Shown here piece after piece: positions 3,920 through 26,302 of a DNA stretch of 64,000 bases. The notes under the pieces are model-generated. The model had not been told where the DNA came from. It did no database searches and saw nothing but the letters and a program-made list of their open reading frames with translations. The stretch is from Candidatus Latescibacterota bacterium (GTDB lineage Bacteria > Latescibacterota > UBA2968 > UBA8231), in contig OY730476.1 in assembly GCA_963422735.1 (NCBI GenBank), positions 2,144,001 through 2,208,000 of the forward strand, given 5' to 3'. Position 1 is the stretch's first letter, and every line of letters starts with the position of its first letter. A program made the translations under genes and the position numbers.

Positions 3920-4738
3920 TTAGCGTTGGCTTAGATCGTCGCCAAGGTCTGTTGAGTCGAACTGCCCCTTCTCGGCGCAGACGGCGACGACCAACAATTC
4001 GAGATTTTCTCGTGTGTGGTTATAGAGGCCGTGGCTGCCTCCCAACCGGCTGGGAATCGCGTCCCACTGCGCGACCTCCCGCGTCTCATCGTCCACCGTC
4101 ATTCGCCCACTTCCCCTGATGATGATATAGACCTCCTCGACGCCTTCGTGGCGGTGGTAGCCGAGCGAGGTGTCCGGCGGCAACAGACAGTGGGCCAAAC
4201 AGTAGAAATTGCTGCGGAAATCCTCCGGCCCCCAGATGCGCCGGCCGCCGACTTCGCCCTTGCCGCCGTGCGCTTGTCCATATTTTAGCGCAGCACGGTC
4301 CAGCCGCCCCACCGGCAGGCGGTCGGTGGGCTCCAATTCAGCACCGACCCGGTCGTCGCCCAGATCGGTCGATTTGGGATCGCCTCCGGGCACCACGCAG
4401 TGGACGTTGAACCAGCGCGTCTCGCAGTCGGTGTGGTTGTAGATGGCGTGGGTCTCGCCCGAGCGCAACGGCACCGCAGCCCCGCCCTCGACTATGGCCG
4501 TGCGCCCGTTGTGGGTGAACTGCGAGGCGTTGTCGATGGCGATGAAAATCTCCTCGCTGTCGTCGTGGCGGTGGTAGCCAATCCCGCCGCCTGGTAGGAG
4601 GATCGCGCAGTGGACGAAGGCGAAGGGCGTCTCAAAATCGGCGCGGTCCCATAGGCTGTTGAAGAGGATCGTCCCGGCACCGCCGTGGACATCGCTCAGC
4701 TCCTTCATGCTCGCACGCTCGGCTCTTGCTATGCGCAT
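3920..4738 (-). CDS. Bicupin (two cupin domains)
   Basis: Duplicated GYHRH..EE..I motif and H(A/G)xYNHT; both halves end STDLGDD. Confidence 0.9.
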   Translation of the reverse strand: MRIARAERASMKELSDVHGGAGTILFNSLWDRADFETPFAFVHCAILLPGGGIGYHRHDDSEEIFIAIDNASQFTHNGRTAIVEGGAAVPLRSGETHAIYNHTDCETRWFNVHCVVPGGDPKSTDLGDDRVGAELEPTDRLPVGRLDRAALKYGQAHGGKGEVGGRRIWGPEDFRSNFYCLAHCLLPPDTSLGYHRHEGVEEVYIIIRGSGRMTVDDETREVAQWDAIPSRLGGSHGLYNHTRENLELLVVAVCAEKGQFDSTDLGDDLSQR

Positions 4739-4745
4739 GACGGCC

Positions 4746-5117
4746 TCATTTCTCGCGGTGGAAGAGCTGAAGGTTCAGTTGGTTTGGCCCCTCGAAAAAA
4801 CCCAAGGTGATGCCGGTCCCTCCGCCGACGTCAAAAGGCTCTTTGGTGATGGTGACTCCCTTGTCCTTCAACTCCTGCGCGCTGTCTTCCGCGCTATCGA
4901 CCTCGAAGGAGATGTGGTGGAAGCCAGGGTCCTGTCCCATGCTCTTTTGTGGCATGAGCTCTAGCAGGATACCGCCCGCGTCGAGGAATACATAGTCCTC
5001 GTCGTCGTCGTTGGCAAAGCGCTCCACCACGGTCAGCCCTAGTTTTTGCGTGTAGAATTCTACTGCTCCTTCGATATCATCGGTTATGACCGCGATTTTG
5101 TGGATTTTGTGTACCAT
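4746..5117 (-). CDS. VOC/glyoxalase family protein
   Basis: DDIEGAVEFYTQKLGL, LELM, GFHHISFEVD. Confidence 0.9.
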   Translation of the reverse strand: MVHKIHKIAVITDDIEGAVEFYTQKLGLTVVERFANDDDEDYVFLDAGGILLELMPQKSMGQDPGFHHISFEVDSAEDSAQELKDKGVTITKEPFDVGGGTGITLGFFEGPNQLNLQLFHREK

Positions 5118-5134
5118 CGAATCTCTCCTCGTCG

Positions 5135-5932
5135 TTAGCTAACCTGTTCGCGATCGAGGTGCTTGCGCAGCCGCCGCCCAACCACGCCGATCTGGTGTTT
5201 GAAGTCTTGGAAAGTATAGCTCTGGTGCGATTTCCAGTAGGAGTTCCATAGCGCGTCGTCCTTGTCCTTGACCTCGGCTAGCCGCGTCAGCGAGCGGCCC
5301 AACTCGGTGCGGCGGAAGTTGCGATGGGCTTGCTTAGTCAGGTAGTAGCCGTATTGAGAATCGGCCGTCTCGTAGCCGTATTTGATCATGGAGCGCGGCT
5401 TGGCGGACCAATGCGCGGCGCGGGCGTGGAGAATCGAGGCAAAGGTCACGGCGAGGGCACCGGCCTTGACGATCACTTTCTGCTGCCCGCGGATCCAGCC
5501 CAGCTTAGCGGTCTGCGGCGGCGTGTAGAGCCGCCGGTGGCTACCGGGCAACAGCATGGTCGGCCCCATGTCCTCCTCCACATCCTGTGGGTAGTACATG
5601 CACAAGATCTCGGTCAGCGGCCGGTCGGCCATATAGGTGTCGTCCACGTGCCAGCCGCCGCCGTCGCTTTGGCCCCCTTGCGTAAGGTGGTTCCAGAAGC
5701 GGAAGGGGCTGATGGCGACCTCGGGCGTCTCCAGCAGGAAGGCGATGAATTCGACGACCTTGGGATGGCAGAGCAAATCGCCGATGCTCTCGCGCTCGAA
5801 GATGTCGATGGACCCGAACTGGTGGGCGTCCTGCTTGGTCCGCTCTACTAGTTCGGGCTCGAGCCAGCCGTCGAGTACGACGTAGCCGGCGTCGAAGAAT
5901 TCTTTTTTTAGCTCTTTCCAGTTGGCTTCCAT
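5135..5932 (-). CDS. Phytanoyl-CoA dioxygenase (PhyH) family protein
   Basis: FFDAGYVVL, WHVD, YYPQDV..MGPT.LLPGSH, ILH. Confidence 0.9.
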   Translation of the reverse strand: MEANWKELKKEFFDAGYVVLDGWLEPELVERTKQDAHQFGSIDIFERESIGDLLCHPKVVEFIAFLLETPEVAISPFRFWNHLTQGGQSDGGGWHVDDTYMADRPLTEILCMYYPQDVEEDMGPTMLLPGSHRRLYTPPQTAKLGWIRGQQKVIVKAGALAVTFASILHARAAHWSAKPRSMIKYGYETADSQYGYYLTKQAHRNFRRTELGRSLTRLAEVKDKDDALWNSYWKSHQSYTFQDFKHQIGVVGRRLRKHLDREQVS

Positions 5933-5943
5933 AGTCCCTCCGT

Positions 5944-6345
5944 TTATTGGCGCTGGCCGTGCGGCGTGTAATCCAGCCCCTCGCCGGGCTGGAAATAACG
6001 CTCTAGGATAAACTCAAAACCGAGTTGGTTGTGGGCGTTTTCCAGCGGGTATTCCACGCCCGGAAAAGACACCACCCGCCACCCGTCGGCCATGGCCGCG
6101 GCCGCGTTGGCATACGGACATTCGTTTTTGGGGTCGAAGCGGAACTCGCTATCGAAGGGGCCGAAGTAGTTCCACGCGATGACGCCCGCGTCGATGCGGT
6201 CTTGGTCGGCCCAGATGTAGAGGAGGTGCTGCTGCTCGCCGCCCTGTAGGTCGCGCAGCGCGTCTAAGTCCTGCAAGGTGACGCCCGCGCCGCTTAAAAT
6301 TTTCTCTTGCGACTGGCGTATCCAGCCGTCTATGGCAGTGGTCAT
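5944..6345 (-). CDS. Conserved-looking hypothetical protein
   Basis: ATG at 6345; packed in the operon just upstream of PhyH; motif PY..A.AAMADGWRVVSFP..LGFEFILE. Confidence 0.7.
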   Translation of the reverse strand: MTTAIDGWIRQSQEKILSGAGVTLQDLDALRDLQGGEQQHLLYIWADQDRIDAGVIAWNYFGPFDSEFRFDPKNECPYANAAAAMADGWRVVSFPGVEYPLENAHNQLGFEFILERYFQPGEGLDYTPHGQRQ

Positions 6346-7309: not shown

Positions 7310-8047
7310 ATGGATGTAGGCATCTGGCAGACCATTCCCCAACCCGCGATTTCCCGCTACTTAGGGCTAATGGGCTGGGATTGGATCGTCCTCGACCTCC
7401 AACACGGCCCGATGACTTGGGAAACCGCCTATGAGTGCATCCACGCCGCCCGACCGACCGGTGCCCGCCCCCTGATCCGCACCACCATTGGCAACCCCGG
7501 CGAAGTGGAAAAGGCCCTCGACCTAGGAGCGGGCGGAGTCGTCGTGCCCATGGTCAACTCGCTCGCCGCGGCCCAAGCCGTCGCCCTCGCCGCCAAATAC
7601 CCGCCCACAGGGACGCGCTCGCTGGGCGGCGACCACTATCTCCACTACGGCGACAACTACTTTGAAAAGGCCAACGACGAGACCCTGCTACTGGTGCAAA
7701 TGGAACACATTGACGCCGTTGAGCAAGCCGAAGAAATCATGGCCCTGCCCGGCGTCGATGGCTGCTTTGTCGGGCCGGTTGACTTGGCGCTTTCGCTGGG
7801 CCTGTCGCGCCATCGCACCATCTACGAACAGCACCCGGCCTATCAGGCGGCGATAGAGCGGATTGTCGCCACAACCCTCGCAGCCGGCAAGAACTCCTGC
7901 TGCAACACGTATTCCCCCGAGGACTTCGCGGCCAAAAAAGCCGCAGGATTCCAAGCCCTCACCTTCAAGTCGGACCTCGATCTGCTAATGGACAGGGGCA
8001 CTCAACTAATGAGCTGTCTCAAGGGAAGAACCGGGGATTCAGTATAG
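7310..8047 (+). CDS. HpcH/HpaI aldolase family protein
   Basis: DWIVLDLQHG, LDLGAGGVVVPMV, KYPPTGTRS, VDGCFVGPVDL. Confidence 0.92.
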   Translation: MDVGIWQTIPQPAISRYLGLMGWDWIVLDLQHGPMTWETAYECIHAARPTGARPLIRTTIGNPGEVEKALDLGAGGVVVPMVNSLAAAQAVALAAKYPPTGTRSLGGDHYLHYGDNYFEKANDETLLLVQMEHIDAVEQAEEIMALPGVDGCFVGPVDLALSLGLSRHRTIYEQHPAYQAAIERIVATTLAAGKNSCCNTYSPEDFAAKKAAGFQALTFKSDLDLLMDRGTQLMSCLKGRTGDSV

Positions 8048-8075: not shown

Positions 8076-8200
8076 ATGACCCTCACCTGCGCCGATGTAG
8101 ATTTCGACCTCGAGCTCGCCGAATTCAAAATCAACGGCTACGCCGTCTTTGAGGACACGATCCCCGAGAAAAAGGAGGCATTCCCGCCGCTGCTATCTCC
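8076..8200 (+). pseudogene. N-terminal remnant of a PhyH-family dioxygenase
   Basis: GGAG SD, then MTLTCADVDFDLELAEFKINGYAVFEDTIP (PhyH N-terminal F..NGY.V.E motif), cut off by the convergent gene. Confidence 0.6.
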
Positions 8201-21408: not shown

Positions 21409-21542
21409 AATTATATTAAATTTTTTACAGATATTACTTTATTATAAAACGTGAGTTCGGTTTAAGCGGCCTCTCCATCGATTTTTTCGGTTGGTGGCCA
21501 TAGGCAATTAATCCGCCGATGAGATGGACCATAGATGGGCGC

Positions 21543-21586
21543 GTCTGCTTCACCCGGCCTTTAGGCAGGACCGTCGCGGTGAAGCC
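21543..21586. repeat. 44-bp palindromic mini-element, copy 1
   Basis: gtctgcttcacccggcctttaggcaggaccgtcgcggtgaagcc; 42/44 identical to 29633-29676; cttcacc..ggtgaag inverted ends. Confidence 0.9.
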
Positions 21587-21599
21587 TTGTGGGTTCAAT

Positions 21600-21922
21600 C
21601 TGGGCGATATTGCGGACTAACCGAGGAATCCTTTGCCGACCAGTTGAAGAAAAACACTGCGGTCAAGGGGTACGCCAAGCTGCCGAGATGGTTCACGGTG
21701 CCGACGCCGCTTGGAAGCTATAACCCGGACTGGGCCGTGGATGGCGAACGGCTGTACTTTGTGGTCGAAACGAAGTCCAGTCTATTCTCCAGCGATCTCC
21801 GCAATGCCGAAAGCGCTCAGATTGAATGCGGCAAGGCGCACTTCGCCGCGCTCAAAGTGAGCAAATCACCGGCGGAGTACCGAACTGCTCGTTCCATAGA
21901 CGACGTATTGACTAGTAGTTAA
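21600..21922 (+). pseudogene. C-terminal remnant of type III restriction endonuclease Res subunit
   Basis: YAKLPRWFTVPTPLGSYNPDWA..LYFVVETK..E..IECGKAHF; no N-terminal helicase part and no mod gene. Confidence 0.85.
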
Positions 21923-21957: not shown

Positions 21958-23448
21958 ATGACCGACCACCCCAACATCCTCGTAATAATGACCGACCAAC
22001 AGCGCGCCACTGCTAGCCACCTCTACGGCAACACCTTTTGCCAAACCCCTTCAATGGAACGCCTAGCCGCCGACGGGGTGCTTTTTGAAAACGCAATCAG
22101 CCCTCACCCGCTCTGCGTACCGGCGCGCATCTCGTTTTGGACCTCGCAGTTTCCCCACTCGCACGGGGGCCGGCGCAATCAGACCTTGATGCCGGTCGGT
22201 GCCACGCACGCCTGGCCGATCTGGAAGGAGGCTGGTTACGCTACGGGACTGATCGGCAAAAACCACTGCTTCCAGCGGGAGGAAGATTTGGCACTCTTCG
22301 ACGTGTGGAACGCCTTTACCCACGGCGGGCGAGACGAGGGACCACAGACGCGAGGCATGGACTGGTTCCGGCCGGAAGAAGGTCGCCGCAAGGTCGCCGC
22401 CGAGCATCGCCAACTCGCCCACCAGAATCCCCGCTTTAGCTACAGCACCTCCGAGCTGCCGTTAGAGGACCACTCCACCGGGCTGATTGCCGGGCAGGCA
22501 ACGCGCTTTCTCGAAAAGTACCAAGACCAGCCCTTTGCCCTGTGGGTTTCCTTTCCCGATCCACACGAGCCGTGGCTGTGCCCGGCCGAGTACGCGACCC
22601 TGTTTCCACCCACGGCCATTGACCTGCCCACCTGGCGCGACGACGAATTCGACGACGAGCGCGCTCCCGAGCGCAATCGGGTGCTTTACCAAATGCTGGG
22701 GGTGCGCCGCGATCCGCCCGAGGATCTCTACGGCGTCATGGCCTCGTACTTTGGTATGGTGCGCTTTATCGACGACGCGCTCGGCCAGATACTCGACAAA
22801 CTCGACGAACTGGGGCTGCGGGAGCAGACGATTGTGGTCTTTTGTTCGGATCACGGCGACTTCATGGGCGAACACGCCATGCAGTGCAAGGGCGGGGTCT
22901 TCTACGACAGCCTGACGCGGGTGCCGCTGATCGTCTCTTGGCCCGGGCAGGTCGCCGCTGGAGTGCGCGACCAGAGCATGGCCAATCTGATCGACGTGGT
23001 GCCGACGCTGCTGCACTTGCAGGGGCTGGAGCCGCCGCGCTCAATGCAAGGAGCACCGCTGCCCACTGTGACCGAAACTGCGCCCCGGGACGAGACCTTT
23101 TCCGAATACGGCAGCGGAGGGCCACTTTTTACCATGGCCGACTTGAAAAAGTTGCCTCAGCCCTATGGCCGCAAGACCCTGATCGACACCTTGCAGTGGC
23201 GCGAGGCAGCCGGCCGGTGCAAGATGGTCCGCACCCGCCAGTGGAAGTACGTCCACGACCCTATGGGAGACCGCGACGAACTCTACGACCTCGTCGCCGA
23301 TCCAGGCGAGTTGGTCAATGTGGTTGACGAAGAGCAACACCGCGACGCCCTCGCAGACATGCGCCTGCGGCTAGCCGATTGGAGCATCAATACCGAGGAC
23401 GGCCGGCCAGTGCCCCTGCCCGATCGCACCCACTACGAGCTGGCCTAA
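21958..23448 (+). CDS. Formylglycine-dependent sulfatase (choline-sulfatase-like)
   Basis: PNILVIMTDQQR, CVPAR (CxPxR), GKNH, PDPHEP, SDHGD, ELYDL..DP.E. Confidence 0.95.
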   Translation: MTDHPNILVIMTDQQRATASHLYGNTFCQTPSMERLAADGVLFENAISPHPLCVPARISFWTSQFPHSHGGRRNQTLMPVGATHAWPIWKEAGYATGLIGKNHCFQREEDLALFDVWNAFTHGGRDEGPQTRGMDWFRPEEGRRKVAAEHRQLAHQNPRFSYSTSELPLEDHSTGLIAGQATRFLEKYQDQPFALWVSFPDPHEPWLCPAEYATLFPPTAIDLPTWRDDEFDDERAPERNRVLYQMLGVRRDPPEDLYGVMASYFGMVRFIDDALGQILDKLDELGLREQTIVVFCSDHGDFMGEHAMQCKGGVFYDSLTRVPLIVSWPGQVAAGVRDQSMANLIDVVPTLLHLQGLEPPRSMQGAPLPTVTETAPRDETFSEYGSGGPLFTMADLKKLPQPYGRKTLIDTLQWREAAGRCKMVRTRQWKYVHDPMGDRDELYDLVADPGELVNVVDEEQHRDALADMRLRLADWSINTEDGRPVPLPDRTHYELA

Positions 23449-23454
23449 CGGCTC

Positions 23455-23483
23455 TTGCACAATCGACGCTCGGCCGATATTTT
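23455..23483 (+). promoter_or_regulatory. Putative sigma70 promoter of thrS leader (TTGCAC-17-TATTTT)
   Basis: The -10 ends 7 nt before the leader ATG (23491), which suggests a leaderless start. Confidence 0.55.
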
Positions 23484-23490
23484 ATAAAGC

Positions 23491-23598
23491 ATGATTCCTG
23501 CTATGCTTACAGTCGCATCCGCACAGTGCCTCAGCGGTTTTCCGTCGGGGCCGACCCCTACCACTGCTACTACTACTACGACCCTGTGCGACGGATAG
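23491..23598 (+). CDS. Thr-rich attenuator leader peptide (35 aa) of thrS
   Basis: MIPAMLTVASAQCLSGFPSGPTPTTATTTTTLCDG*; 8 Thr in 10 consecutive codons, directly upstream of a terminator and thrS. Confidence 0.85.
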   Translation: MIPAMLTVASAQCLSGFPSGPTPTTATTTTTLCDG

Positions 23599-23628
23599 CG
23601 ACGGACTAAAATTTATTTTGCAATCACT

Positions 23629-23662
23629 CCCCGCTGTCGGCTACGATGACAGCGGGGTTTTT
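23629..23662 (+). terminator. Attenuator intrinsic terminator
   Basis: ccccgctgtc-ggctacgat-gacagcgggg-ttttt; perfect 10-bp stem ending 18 nt before the thrS ATG. Confidence 0.9.
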
Positions 23663-23680
23663 CATGCCAAGGAGCACGTC

Positions 23681-25591
23681 ATGCTGATCAAGATCCCCCA
23701 AAGACAAGCCATCGAATACCCCGACGAGGGTTCGCTCAAAGAGATCCTCATCCAAGAGGACAAAGCGCTATTAAAGCAATACATTGCCGCCCGCGCCGGC
23801 GACGAGCGCATCGACTTCCACACCCGGCTCGGCAGCGAGGCGGAAGTTGAGCTTATTCCCTGGGATGCGGACGAGGCCGCTTGGATCTACCGCCACAGCA
23901 TGTCGCACGTGTTGGCGCAGGCCGTGCTGCGCCTCTTCCCGGCCGCGCAGCTAGCGATCGGCCCAGCCATTGACGACGGCTTTTACTACGACTTCGACGT
24001 CGCCGAGCCTTTTACGCCCGAAGACTTGCAGAAGATCGAGCGGGAGATGAAGCGGGTCATCAAGCAAAACCACAAGTTTGAGCGGATCGATGTTGCGCGC
24101 CAAGAAGCGGAAGAGATGGTCGCCAACGCCCCTTACAAACAGGAGATCCTCGCCGACTTGGAAGAGAGCCAGACCTTGTCCTTTTACAAAGACGGCGAGT
24201 TCATCGACTTGTGCCGGGGGCCGCACATGCTCGGCACCGGGCAAATCAGGCACTTCAAGCTCTTGAGCGTAGCTGGGGCCTACTGGCGCGGCGACGAGAG
24301 CCGCAAGATGTTGCAGCGGATATACGGTACGGCCTTTGCCACCCGCGAGGGGCTCGACCACCATCTGGCCATGCTGGAGGAGGCTAAAAAGCGCGACCAC
24401 CGCGCGCTGGGCAAGCAACTAGAGTTGTTCACCTTTGACGACGAAGTGGGGCCGGGGTTGCCCCTGTGGCTTCCCAAGGGGGCGGTACTCATCGACGAGT
24501 TGGAGGACTTGGCCCGCAAGACCGAGCGCGAGGCCGGCTATCGGCGGGTGCGCACACCGCATATCTGCAAGGAGTCCATGTATCTGCGCAGCGGCCACTT
24601 GCCGTACTATGCCGAGTCCATGTTCCCGCCCATGGAGTTGGAGGGGGTCAAGTACTATCTCAAGCCTATGAACTGCCCCCACCACCACAAAATTTTCGCC
24701 GCCGCCTCGCGCTCGTACCGCGACCTGCCCCTGCGTCTGGCCGAGTATGGCACGTGCTATCGCTACGAGCAGTCGGGCGAGTTATTTGGCTTGATGCGGG
24801 TGCGCTCATTGCAGATGAACGACGCGCATATCTACTGTACCCTCGACCAGTTTGAGGGCGAATTCCTCGCCGTCTGCCAGATGTATCTGCGCTATTTCGA
24901 ACTGTTCGGCTTGGAGAATTACCTGATGCGCTTGAGCACCCACGCGCCATCGGGCTTGGGGGCAAAATACGTTGATGACCGCGAGAGGTGGCTCCGCACC
25001 GAGGACATGGTGCGCGGCGCGATGGCAAAGGGGGGAATCAACTACGAGGAGGTACCCGACGAGGCGGCCTTCTACGGCCCCAAGATCGACGTCGAGGTTT
25101 GGAGTGCCATCGGGCGGCAGTTTACGATCGCCACCAATCAAGTCGATTTCGCCCAGCCCGGCCGCTTCGGCTTGTCGTACACCAACGCGGCGGGTGAAGA
25201 GGAGACGCCTATCTGCATCCACCGCGCACCACTGGGCACGCACGAGCGCTTTATCGGCTTCTTGATCGAACACTACGCCGGCGCGTTCCCAGTGTGGTTG
25301 GCACCGGTGCAAGCGGTAGTGCTGCCCATTGCCGAGCGCCACGCCGAGTATGGGGGGCAGCTCCATCAGCAGTTTCTCGCCGCTGGAATCCGGGCCGAAC
25401 TCGACGCGGCCAGCGAGACCCTCAACAAGCGCATCCGCCAAGCGCAGACTCAGAAGGTGCCCTATATGCTGATCGCCGGGGACCGCGAAGTTGAAGAGGG
25501 CAAGGTGGCGATCCGGCAGCGATCCGGCAAACAGATCGACCCGCTCCCGGTAGCCGAGGCCGTCGCGCTGATCGACGCTGAGATTCGATAG
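23681..25591 (+). CDS. thrS: Threonine--tRNA ligase
   Basis: RHSMSHVLAQAV, DLCRGPH, GAYWRG, RDHR, KPMNCP, AFYGPKID, IHRAPLG.HER; GGAG SD before ATG 23681. Confidence 0.99.
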   Translation: MLIKIPQRQAIEYPDEGSLKEILIQEDKALLKQYIAARAGDERIDFHTRLGSEAEVELIPWDADEAAWIYRHSMSHVLAQAVLRLFPAAQLAIGPAIDDGFYYDFDVAEPFTPEDLQKIEREMKRVIKQNHKFERIDVARQEAEEMVANAPYKQEILADLEESQTLSFYKDGEFIDLCRGPHMLGTGQIRHFKLLSVAGAYWRGDESRKMLQRIYGTAFATREGLDHHLAMLEEAKKRDHRALGKQLELFTFDDEVGPGLPLWLPKGAVLIDELEDLARKTEREAGYRRVRTPHICKESMYLRSGHLPYYAESMFPPMELEGVKYYLKPMNCPHHHKIFAAASRSYRDLPLRLAEYGTCYRYEQSGELFGLMRVRSLQMNDAHIYCTLDQFEGEFLAVCQMYLRYFELFGLENYLMRLSTHAPSGLGAKYVDDRERWLRTEDMVRGAMAKGGINYEEVPDEAAFYGPKIDVEVWSAIGRQFTIATNQVDFAQPGRFGLSYTNAAGEEETPICIHRAPLGTHERFIGFLIEHYAGAFPVWLAPVQAVVLPIAERHAEYGGQLHQQFLAAGIRAELDAASETLNKRIRQAQTQKVPYMLIAGDREVEEGKVAIRQRSGKQIDPLPVAEAVALIDAEIR

Positions 25592-25594
25592 GCT

Positions 25595-26302
25595 ATGTTC
25601 CGCCGCATCCGCTACATCGCCGGGGTTTTCTGGCAATTTCGCTACTATCTCCTTTGCACGGGGCTGGCGCTAGCCTTTTGGGACACCGCGCTGATCAAGC
25701 CGTTCCGCTTCTTTGTGGTGCTGGTCCACGAGGTCAATCACGCGGCAGCAGCCCTGCTCACTGGCGGCGAGGTCCTCGAAATCCGCACCCATTGGGACGA
25801 GTCCGGGCACACCCTGACGAAGGGGGGCTTTTTCCCGCTGATTAGCGCGGCAGGCTACGTAGGGTCGGCACTGTGGGGGGCGTTGCTGATGTACACCTCG
25901 CTTTATCCGCAAGCGCAGCGTTTGGTGTTGCTCTGCATCGGCGCGGCCTGCGCGGGGATGACCCTGATCTACACGCCGCTGGAGGCGGGGGGGATTGATT
26001 TCGCTTTGGGGATCGGCGGCGGGCTGGTCTTGTGCATCATGGCCTGCAAGTCGAAGCGGATGGCGAGCATCGGCGCGGTGTGGATGGGGGTGATGCTCTG
26101 CCTGTACAGCCTCTACGACTTCCGCACCGACCTGTGGTACTATCCAGAGCGGACGGACGCCGGGATATTGTCGGCCCATTGGGGGCTGAATCCGTTGCAG
26201 GTGCCCTATCTGGCGTATCTGATTGCCTTGATTTGGGTGCTGGTGTCGCTGTCGTGCATGTATCGAGCGATGCGCGCTGTGGCCCTCAATCGGGGGCTTT
26301 AA
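25595..26302 (+). CDS. M50B-like membrane metallopeptidase
   Basis: HEVNH (HExxH), AAGYVGS, TDA..L, multiple TM segments. Confidence 0.85.
   Translation: MFRRIRYIAGVFWQFRYYLLCTGLALAFWDTALIKPFRFFVVLVHEVNHAAAALLTGGEVLEIRTHWDESGHTLTKGGFFPLISAAGYVGSALWGALLMYTSLYPQAQRLVLLCIGAACAGMTLIYTPLEAGGIDFALGIGGGLVLCIMACKSKRMASIGAVWMGVMLCLYSLYDFRTDLWYYPERTDAGILSAHWGLNPLQVPYLAYLIALIWVLVSLSCMYRAMRAVALNRGL

Follow-up and report, generated by a model that had tools for sequence, protein, structure and literature searches.

A probable threonine-sensing transcription attenuator with a threonine-rich leader upstream of thrS in Candidatus Latescibacterota

Results

The threonine--tRNA ligase gene (thrS) of a Candidatus Latescibacterota bacterium is very probably controlled by a classical ribosome-mediated transcription attenuator, which would set thrS transcription according to the supply of charged tRNA-Thr; we put the probability of this reading at roughly 0.88. 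The element lies in a 64,000-nt stretch of DNA (assembly GCA_963422735.1, contig OY730476.1, positions 2,144,001 to 2,208,000 of the forward strand), hereafter the window, from a phylum of the FCB group. Positions without a locus prefix refer to the window. The stop of a sulfatase gene (23448) and the thrS ATG (23681) are separated by 232 nt, and this interval holds both a threonine-rich upstream open reading frame (uORF) and an intrinsic terminator (Table 1). Judged from the letters and their conservation, the element is real, conserved and well formed. Attenuation is supported because the uORF, its Thr run, an antiterminator strand, the terminator and their spacing are all conserved, and it is supported further because the regulated gene encodes the cognate synthetase (TIGR00418, 678 bits against a cut-off of 384). 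An original prediction, made without database searches, had proposed ribosome-mediated Thr attenuation of thrS, and this conservation of parts and spacing supports it.

Table 1. Coordinates of the thrS leader element, the adjoining genes and the Val leaders of locus L005 (energies in kcal/mol)
Feature	Position	Strand	Remarks
Predicted sigma70-type promoter	23455..23483	+	-35 TTGCAC (23455-60), 17-nt spacer, -10 TATTTT (23478-83)
Leader uORF (thrL-like)	23491..23598	+	35 codons, no Shine-Dalgarno sequence (SD), probably leaderless; orthologues in L001-L004
Protector or possible pause helix P1, 5' strand	23512..23526	+	Pairs with 23584-23602; RNAalifold consensus; -18.2
Alternative protector strand of the original prediction	23541..23547	+	-9.2 as protector
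Control codons	23554..23583	+	Codons 22-31, 8 Thr in 10; ACC/ACT/ACG
Switch strand (region 2)	23584..23605	+	Pairs with P1 5' strand or acts as antiterminator; overlaps uORF stop codon
Intrinsic terminator	23629..23662	+	11-bp stem, 7-nt loop, U-tract; -21.6
SD and thrS (regulated gene)	23669..25591	+	SD AAGGAG (23669-74); ATG 23681
Peptidase M50B-like membrane protein	25595..26302	+	Pfam PF13398; 3 nt after thrS
First Val unit	L005:7664-7747 (uORF)		4 consecutive Val; terminator 7777-7811
Second Val unit	L005:7965-8069 (uORF)		SD-led, 12 Val; terminator 8099-8135

A conserved threonine-rich leader

Relatives were gathered by scanning a genome collection with ThrS residues 1-240, and the best 80 of 576 confirmed stretches (among at least 600 matched) were compared; further Latescibacterota loci may lie beyond these 80. 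Upstream regions were scored at the 77 loci with at least 250 nt preceding thrS, leaving out three with too little upstream sequence. Close relatives of ThrS number about 120. Full-length ThrS identity to the window is 93-95% in the loci L001-L004 (three labelled Latescibacterota, one Gemmatimonadetes), 61% in L005 (labelled Planctomycetota, with sulfatase and M50B neighbors as in the window) and 74% in L006 (labelled Latescibacterota).

The leader peptide is exactly the one claimed in the original prediction. Its density of eight Thr in ten codons is reached nowhere else in the six frames of the window, where seven in ten occurs at two other places, and the binomial expectation of such stretches in the whole window is ~3e-4. 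In L001-L004 the orthologous uORFs have 32-37 codons and runs containing 8-11 Thr, and L005 carries a barely alignable uORF of 47 codons with 6 Thr in 11, so that a Thr-rich uORF with a terminator is found in five of the six nearest loci. Conservation among related upstream regions had been proposed as a check, and it holds both in this respect and in two compensatory pairs of the helix P1 (below). At least 6 Thr in 12 codons were counted at 6 of the 77 scored loci, namely L001-L005 and L072; the L072 match, off-frame within the upstream gene, was rejected as an artefact. Real Thr-rich uORFs are absent from the remaining 71 scored loci.

The manner in which these runs vary is informative. Across the five close leaders (window and L001-L004) the 45 Thr codons of the run divide into 16 ACT, 15 ACC and 14 ACG, the AC staying constant while the third position varies freely, and translation in either of the other frames yields a mixture of residues or stops. 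Differences in uORF length among the five are multiples of 3. Such degenerate third positions and frame-keeping lengths speak against both a simple microsatellite and the use of another frame for sensing. The leader peptide belongs to no NCBIfam family, and its DNA has no match in a plasmid collection. A protein collection queried with the 48-codon open frame of L003 yielded no homologue, a result of little weight since small open reading frames are rarely predicted there. Inspection of the proS upstream regions in the window, L001, L002, L004 and L006 revealed no Pro-rich leader.

Terminator, antiterminator and protector helix

The terminator predicted originally is present before the thrS SD, as an 11-pair stem (23629-23657, with one G-U pair closing the loop) followed by T5 to 23662. 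It is the sole plus-strand terminator-like site in 22500-24500, with a predicted 3' end at ~23662-23665, and it occurs at the same place in 7/7 loci (window and L001-L006). The strand 23594-605 mimics the terminator 3' arm and can act as an antiterminator through pairing of 23594-600 with 23632-38 and of 23603-05 with 23628-30 (-10.6 kcal/mol in the window). In each of L001-L004 this strand is identical at 12/12 positions, compared with an identity of 0.73-0.75 at thrS four-fold sites, and in the window and L001-L004 its start lies ~13 nt downstream of the position where the run's last Thr codon begins. L005 has changed both the antiterminator strand and the terminator arm and yet has kept 9 bp between them, a pairing matched in strength by 2 of 2000 shuffles.

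Folding was carried out for the window and L001-L005 with a ribosome mask covering 12 nt from the A site. For the window and L001-L004, the probability that the terminator 5' arm pairs upstream is 0.77-0.9 for ribosome positions up to and including the run's last Thr codon, ~0.6 for the next two codons and 0.01-0.23 for the last ones of the frame. L005 shows the same drop, from 0.90 to 0.11, after Thr37.

The switch strand also has candidate protector partners. The original prediction had paired CCGTCG (23542) with CGACGG (23589 or 23599); this complementarity is in place and invariant in 5/5 close leaders, and the helix P1 is the better-supported candidate protector, by folding energy (Table 1) and by compensatory change. 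The strand 23541-23547 also enters a local hairpin with 23552-57, of 4 bp in the window and L002 and 6 bp in L001, L003 and L004. P1, whose 5' strand sits 30-45 nt upstream of the control codons, shows one compensatory pair in L004 and another in L002 (19/500 shuffles; five related sequences).

Several observations weigh against the attenuator as modeled. L006 has a 48-codon uORF with 4 scattered Thr only, an antiterminator duplex at chance level (659/2000 shuffles) and no clear switch. The GATAGCG (23594)/CGCTGTC (23632) complement of the original prediction is in place and conserved, yet taken alone it lies within chance, 140 of 2000 shuffles being as strong in the window and 140-210 across the window and L001-L004. 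The antiterminator is weaker than the terminator (-10.6 vs -21.6 kcal/mol), so the model needs folding kinetics, and equilibrium folding does not show P1 winning over the antiterminator. Once pairing across a single ribosome is allowed, the antiterminator share over the Thr codons of the window is 0.15-0.5, and with the ribosome at the stop codon the 5' arm still pairs upstream at 0.5-0.7 in the window and L001-L004. For an incomplete transcript with no ribosome on it, equilibrium folding leaves the arm sequestered at 0.63-0.98, and so does not show the untranslated leader to be off. The five close leader sequences are ~91% identical and not independent, and their covariation amounts to two pairs in five sequences. 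Switching between on and off at the Thr run is supported under the usual ribosome-mask assumption and weakened by cross-ribosome pairing; folding of the alternatives, also proposed as a check, thus reproduces the switch with the mask and gives a weaker one when such pairing is permitted.

Promoter and start of the leader

The TTGCAC-17-TATTTT promoter originally proposed is present, with the uORF ATG 7 nt after it and the +1 predicted at 23491 or 1-2 nt away. Taken alone it is weak (7/12 consensus matches; a promoter scan listed 0 sites there), and for this reason its assignment rests on conservation. The pattern TTG(C/A)(A/C)(C/A)-17/18-TAnnTT is kept in 7/7 loci, with a -35 of TTGACA in L002, L005 and L006, and these same three loci retain the promoter before thrS despite a different upstream gene. 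GCCGR stands right before the -10 box in all seven thrS promoters (window 23473-23483) and may be an extended -10 element of the phylum or a regulator site. A second promoter-like motif, TTGCAA-18-TACGAT at 23618-23647, overlaps the terminator; in the form TTGCAA-18-TAC(G/A)AT it occurs in the window, L002 and L003 only (3/7), and it could be a source of basal thrS transcription.

A leaderless start is probable in the clade of the window. The ATG lies exactly 7 nt past the -10 box in 5/5 close leaders despite varying spacer letters; in L004 a 12-nt insertion/deletion, giving a shorter leader, brings the second ATG to this position, and L002 has lost its second ATG. No SD precedes the first ATG, as had been claimed, or the second: the duplex with the anti-SD motif, which we take to be the usual one, is -1.7 kcal/mol for the uORF vs -7.2 kcal/mol for thrS. 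The fixed spacing makes the leaderless start of the original prediction plausible, if indirectly. It is not essential to the element, because the leader of L005 is SD-led (-6.6 kcal/mol) and begins 36 nt after the -10 box. A strict promoter-plus-ATG scan of the window gave one other candidate only, and hence no sign that leaderless genes are common there.

Proposed mechanism

In the model we favor, RNA polymerase would start at about the uORF ATG and a ribosome would load on the leaderless 5' AUG. P1 would be the first helix to form, and it may keep the polymerase paused until the helix is opened by the ribosome. A shortage of Thr-tRNA should stall the ribosome in codons 22-31, leaving 23594-605 exposed to pair with the nascent terminator 5' arm; with the antiterminator formed, polymerase would read into thrS and probably into the M50B-like gene too. 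When Thr-tRNA is plentiful, the ribosome would reach the stop codon and cover 23594-610, allowing the terminator to fold and transcription to stop near 23662. The P1 5' strand would lie behind the stalled ribosome, where a second ribosome would cover it.

Val leaders before valS and a wider proposal

In L005 (7664-8135) a valS-like gene, seen as a fragment with its best match of the PRK13208 type, is preceded by two tandem units resembling attenuators with Val leaders (Table 1). Each unit has a strand complementary to its own terminator 5' arm (5 and 235 of 2000 shuffles), and the terminators resemble those of thrS, in this one contig. That an equivalent arrangement with Val codons precedes valS speaks in favor of the Thr attenuator. 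Between the units lies a long imperfect inverted repeat (L005:7813-7935, -60 kcal/mol), possibly an insert resembling repetitive extragenic palindromic sequences or miniature inverted-repeat transposable elements.

A broader proposal can be framed from these cases, which we advance tentatively and consider, taken jointly, somewhat doubtful. Leader-peptide attenuators on a common terminator/antiterminator scaffold might be used lineage-wide on aminoacyl-tRNA synthetase genes of Latescibacterota in place of T-boxes. The thrS element would alternate between leaderless and SD-led forms, its long-range P1 kept open by a queued second ribosome, and the two serial Val leaders of valS would give a steeper response.

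Neighboring features

The M50B-like gene adjoins the 3' end of thrS in 6/7 loci (window, L001-L004, L006) and lies one gene further in L005. It is probably co-transcribed with thrS and would therefore be co-regulated. Directly before the sulfatase gene the window holds a fragment bearing a PF19778 restriction-endonuclease domain (21524-21922), and the region upstream of the sulfatase varies among L001-L004. A HicB/HicA-like small pair, recognized by eye and with an internal stop in the second frame, lies between sulfatase and thrS promoter in L002 (3290-3770). The window contains no tRNA genes.

The L005 contig is syntenic with the Latescibacterota loci despite its Planctomycetota label. Its ThrS (4001-5992) matches the window at 79-88% identity in residues 81-240 and 36-64% beyond, unlike that of L006, and a domain swap is possible. 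The thrS leader of L006 (L006:3659-3985) is ~290 nt long, GC-rich and structured, with the same type of promoter and terminator and no Rfam match; it could be a degenerate or a different switch.

Discussion

Among the alternatives, the one that deserves most weight keeps the attenuator and gives up the leaderless start. A longer transcript, from sulfatase read-through or a further-upstream transcription start site, would then be translated by SD-independent initiation, or translation would begin at the second ATG (23503). Four observations would fit: the promoter matches the consensus poorly, the stretch from the sulfatase stop to the uORF contains no terminator-like site, the L005 leader is SD-led, and the strict scan found a single other candidate. 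Fixed placement of the ATG despite spacer variation and the 12-nt indel, loss of the second ATG in L002, lack of an SD at either ATG and retention of the promoter when the upstream gene changes argue the other way, and we regard this variant as unlikely, if by no means negligible. Far less probable is a constitutive terminator of transcription from upstream, with the thrS promoter inside the hairpin and the Thr run a functionless (ACN)n microsatellite. Run lengths do vary as in repeats, and the promoter-like motif over the terminator would suit this account, yet that motif is not found in L001, L004, L005 and L006. Degeneracy falls exactly at third codon positions, length changes keep the frame, the terminator persists with three other upstream genes, and the Thr-rich leader of L005 is a different one whose antiterminator co-varies.

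It is just as improbable that a non-ribosomal RNA switch, either a T-box or a threonyl-tRNA synthetase-binding operator like that of E. coli, controls the terminator with the uORF incidental. T-box control of thrS in two Firmicutes-type loci of the same search, the long conserved pairings and the long structured L006 leader without a Thr run lend it some appeal. No T-box or other Rfam family was found at or near the gathering score, however, and 45 Thr codons in one frame would be left unexplained. The tRNA-Thr anticodon identity is G35-U36, and the 7-nt terminator loop, which varies, presents UAC or UCC, not a Thr anticodon. Least credible of all is sensing in another frame, either the overlapping +2 frame rich in Tyr, His and Asp or a fusion of the +1 frame with thrS. 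In the window, L001 and L002 the +2 frame stays open, contains 4-6 Tyr and has a GTG/ATG start, and at several loci the thrS frame extends upstream through the terminator without a stop. The former mixes Tyr, His, Asp and Cys non-synonymously with no shared start, and the cognate gene is thrS. A leader-thrS frameshift fusion was rejected on account of stops in the +1 frame of L001, L002 and L004.

If the Thr-sensing attenuator is confirmed, it would be a well-formed case of thrS attenuation, with a Thr run far stronger and a terminator clearer than in the Streptomyces case as given in the available part of its source (below), in an uncultured phylum of the FCB group for which our searches gave no description of such RNA regulation. 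It would suggest working transcription-translation coupling and leaderless initiation in the phylum, and would offer a compact Thr-tRNA sensor testable in a laboratory host. The mechanism is a textbook one, and nothing is overturned by it.

Comparison with known systems

The enterobacterial thrL-thrABC attenuator controls biosynthesis and senses Thr and Ile through an SD-led leader and an intrinsic terminator. A ribosome-sensed Thr codon run and an intrinsic terminator are common to both systems; unlike the enterobacterial one, the element here precedes thrS, would sense Thr only and has no SD. The Rfam family Thr_leader has Thr and Ile codons before thrA. There is no Ile in the window run and the downstream gene is thrS, and Thr_leader gave 0 matches at gathering score in the window and is absent among the 4 weak matches of the leader at E up to 10. 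No Rfam family reached gathering score in the window, the leader and the L006 leader giving weak unrelated matches only. T-boxes (RF00230 or T-box bulge) were seen in neither the window nor L001-L006; positive controls were found in L012 and L046, the two Firmicutes-type loci with T-boxes at thrS among 16 scanned. In the E. coli-type thrS operator, a hairpin loop next to the ribosome-binding site mimics the tRNA-Thr anticodon. No such operator was seen by inspection, the sole hairpin near this site being the terminator, with its variable UAC/UCC loop center. A 2010 survey by Lopatovskaya, Seliverstov and Lyubetsky, which presumably predates Latescibacterota genomes, is said to include thrS among genes predicted to be attenuated.

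The accessible parts of PMC6614838, PMC4833913 and PMC8269248 contain nothing on thrS leaders. No paper linking attenuators or leader peptides to Latescibacterota was found among those listed in a search that left subscription journals mostly outside and included no supplements, and as far as it reaches the claim that the element is undocumented in this lineage stands. Mycobacterial leaderless poly-Cys small-ORF attenuators (the 'ribulon') act on translation through sequestration of the ribosome-binding site, according to the available text of bioRxiv 10.1101/834739. The 'ribulon' uses a leaderless uORF with an amino-acid run as sensor, as far as that text goes, and the element here probably does too; the 'ribulon' is translational, whereas the element here has an intrinsic terminator and is therefore predicted to attenuate transcription.

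Attenuators of synthetase genes themselves have precedents. The available portions of PMC1262725 describe classical attenuators for pheST in gamma-proteobacteria and for leuS and trpS in Streptomyces, and those of PMC2965389 His leaders before hisS paralogues in bacilli. On the showing of these portions, the element resembles all of them in its cognate-codon uORF and alternative antiterminator/terminator hairpins before a synthetase gene, and differs in pairing Thr with thrS, in occurring in Latescibacterota and in its long-range P1.

The closest counterpart is thrL of Streptomyces lividans (SLIV_19412), a leaderless leader with two Thr before thrS, read as an attenuator leader in the accessible part of PMC8079986, which also mentions leaderless leaders before leuS and trpS. 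The 'unusual solution' of the original prediction is therefore not as unusual as had been claimed. Both are short ORFs with Thr codons directly upstream of thrS, leaderless in S. lividans and probably so here; as far as that part of the source shows, the S. lividans leader has 18 aa, two Thr and no clear intrinsic terminator, in contrast to 32-37 aa, 8-11 Thr in a run and a full set of terminator, antiterminator and putative protector here, in a different phylum. The two peptides, compared by eye, show no likeness.

Set beside classical attenuators generally, the features line up: cognate codons in a uORF before thrS, conserved in L001-L005; an intrinsic terminator between uORF and gene in 7/7 loci; and, by masked folding in the window and L001-L005, an exclusive antiterminator that is free at the control codons and covered at the stop. 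On these features the thrS element belongs to the classical attenuators. Its novelty is modest, a known kind of attenuator in a new phylum, given that synthetase-gene attenuators and a leaderless Thr leader before thrS are known already.

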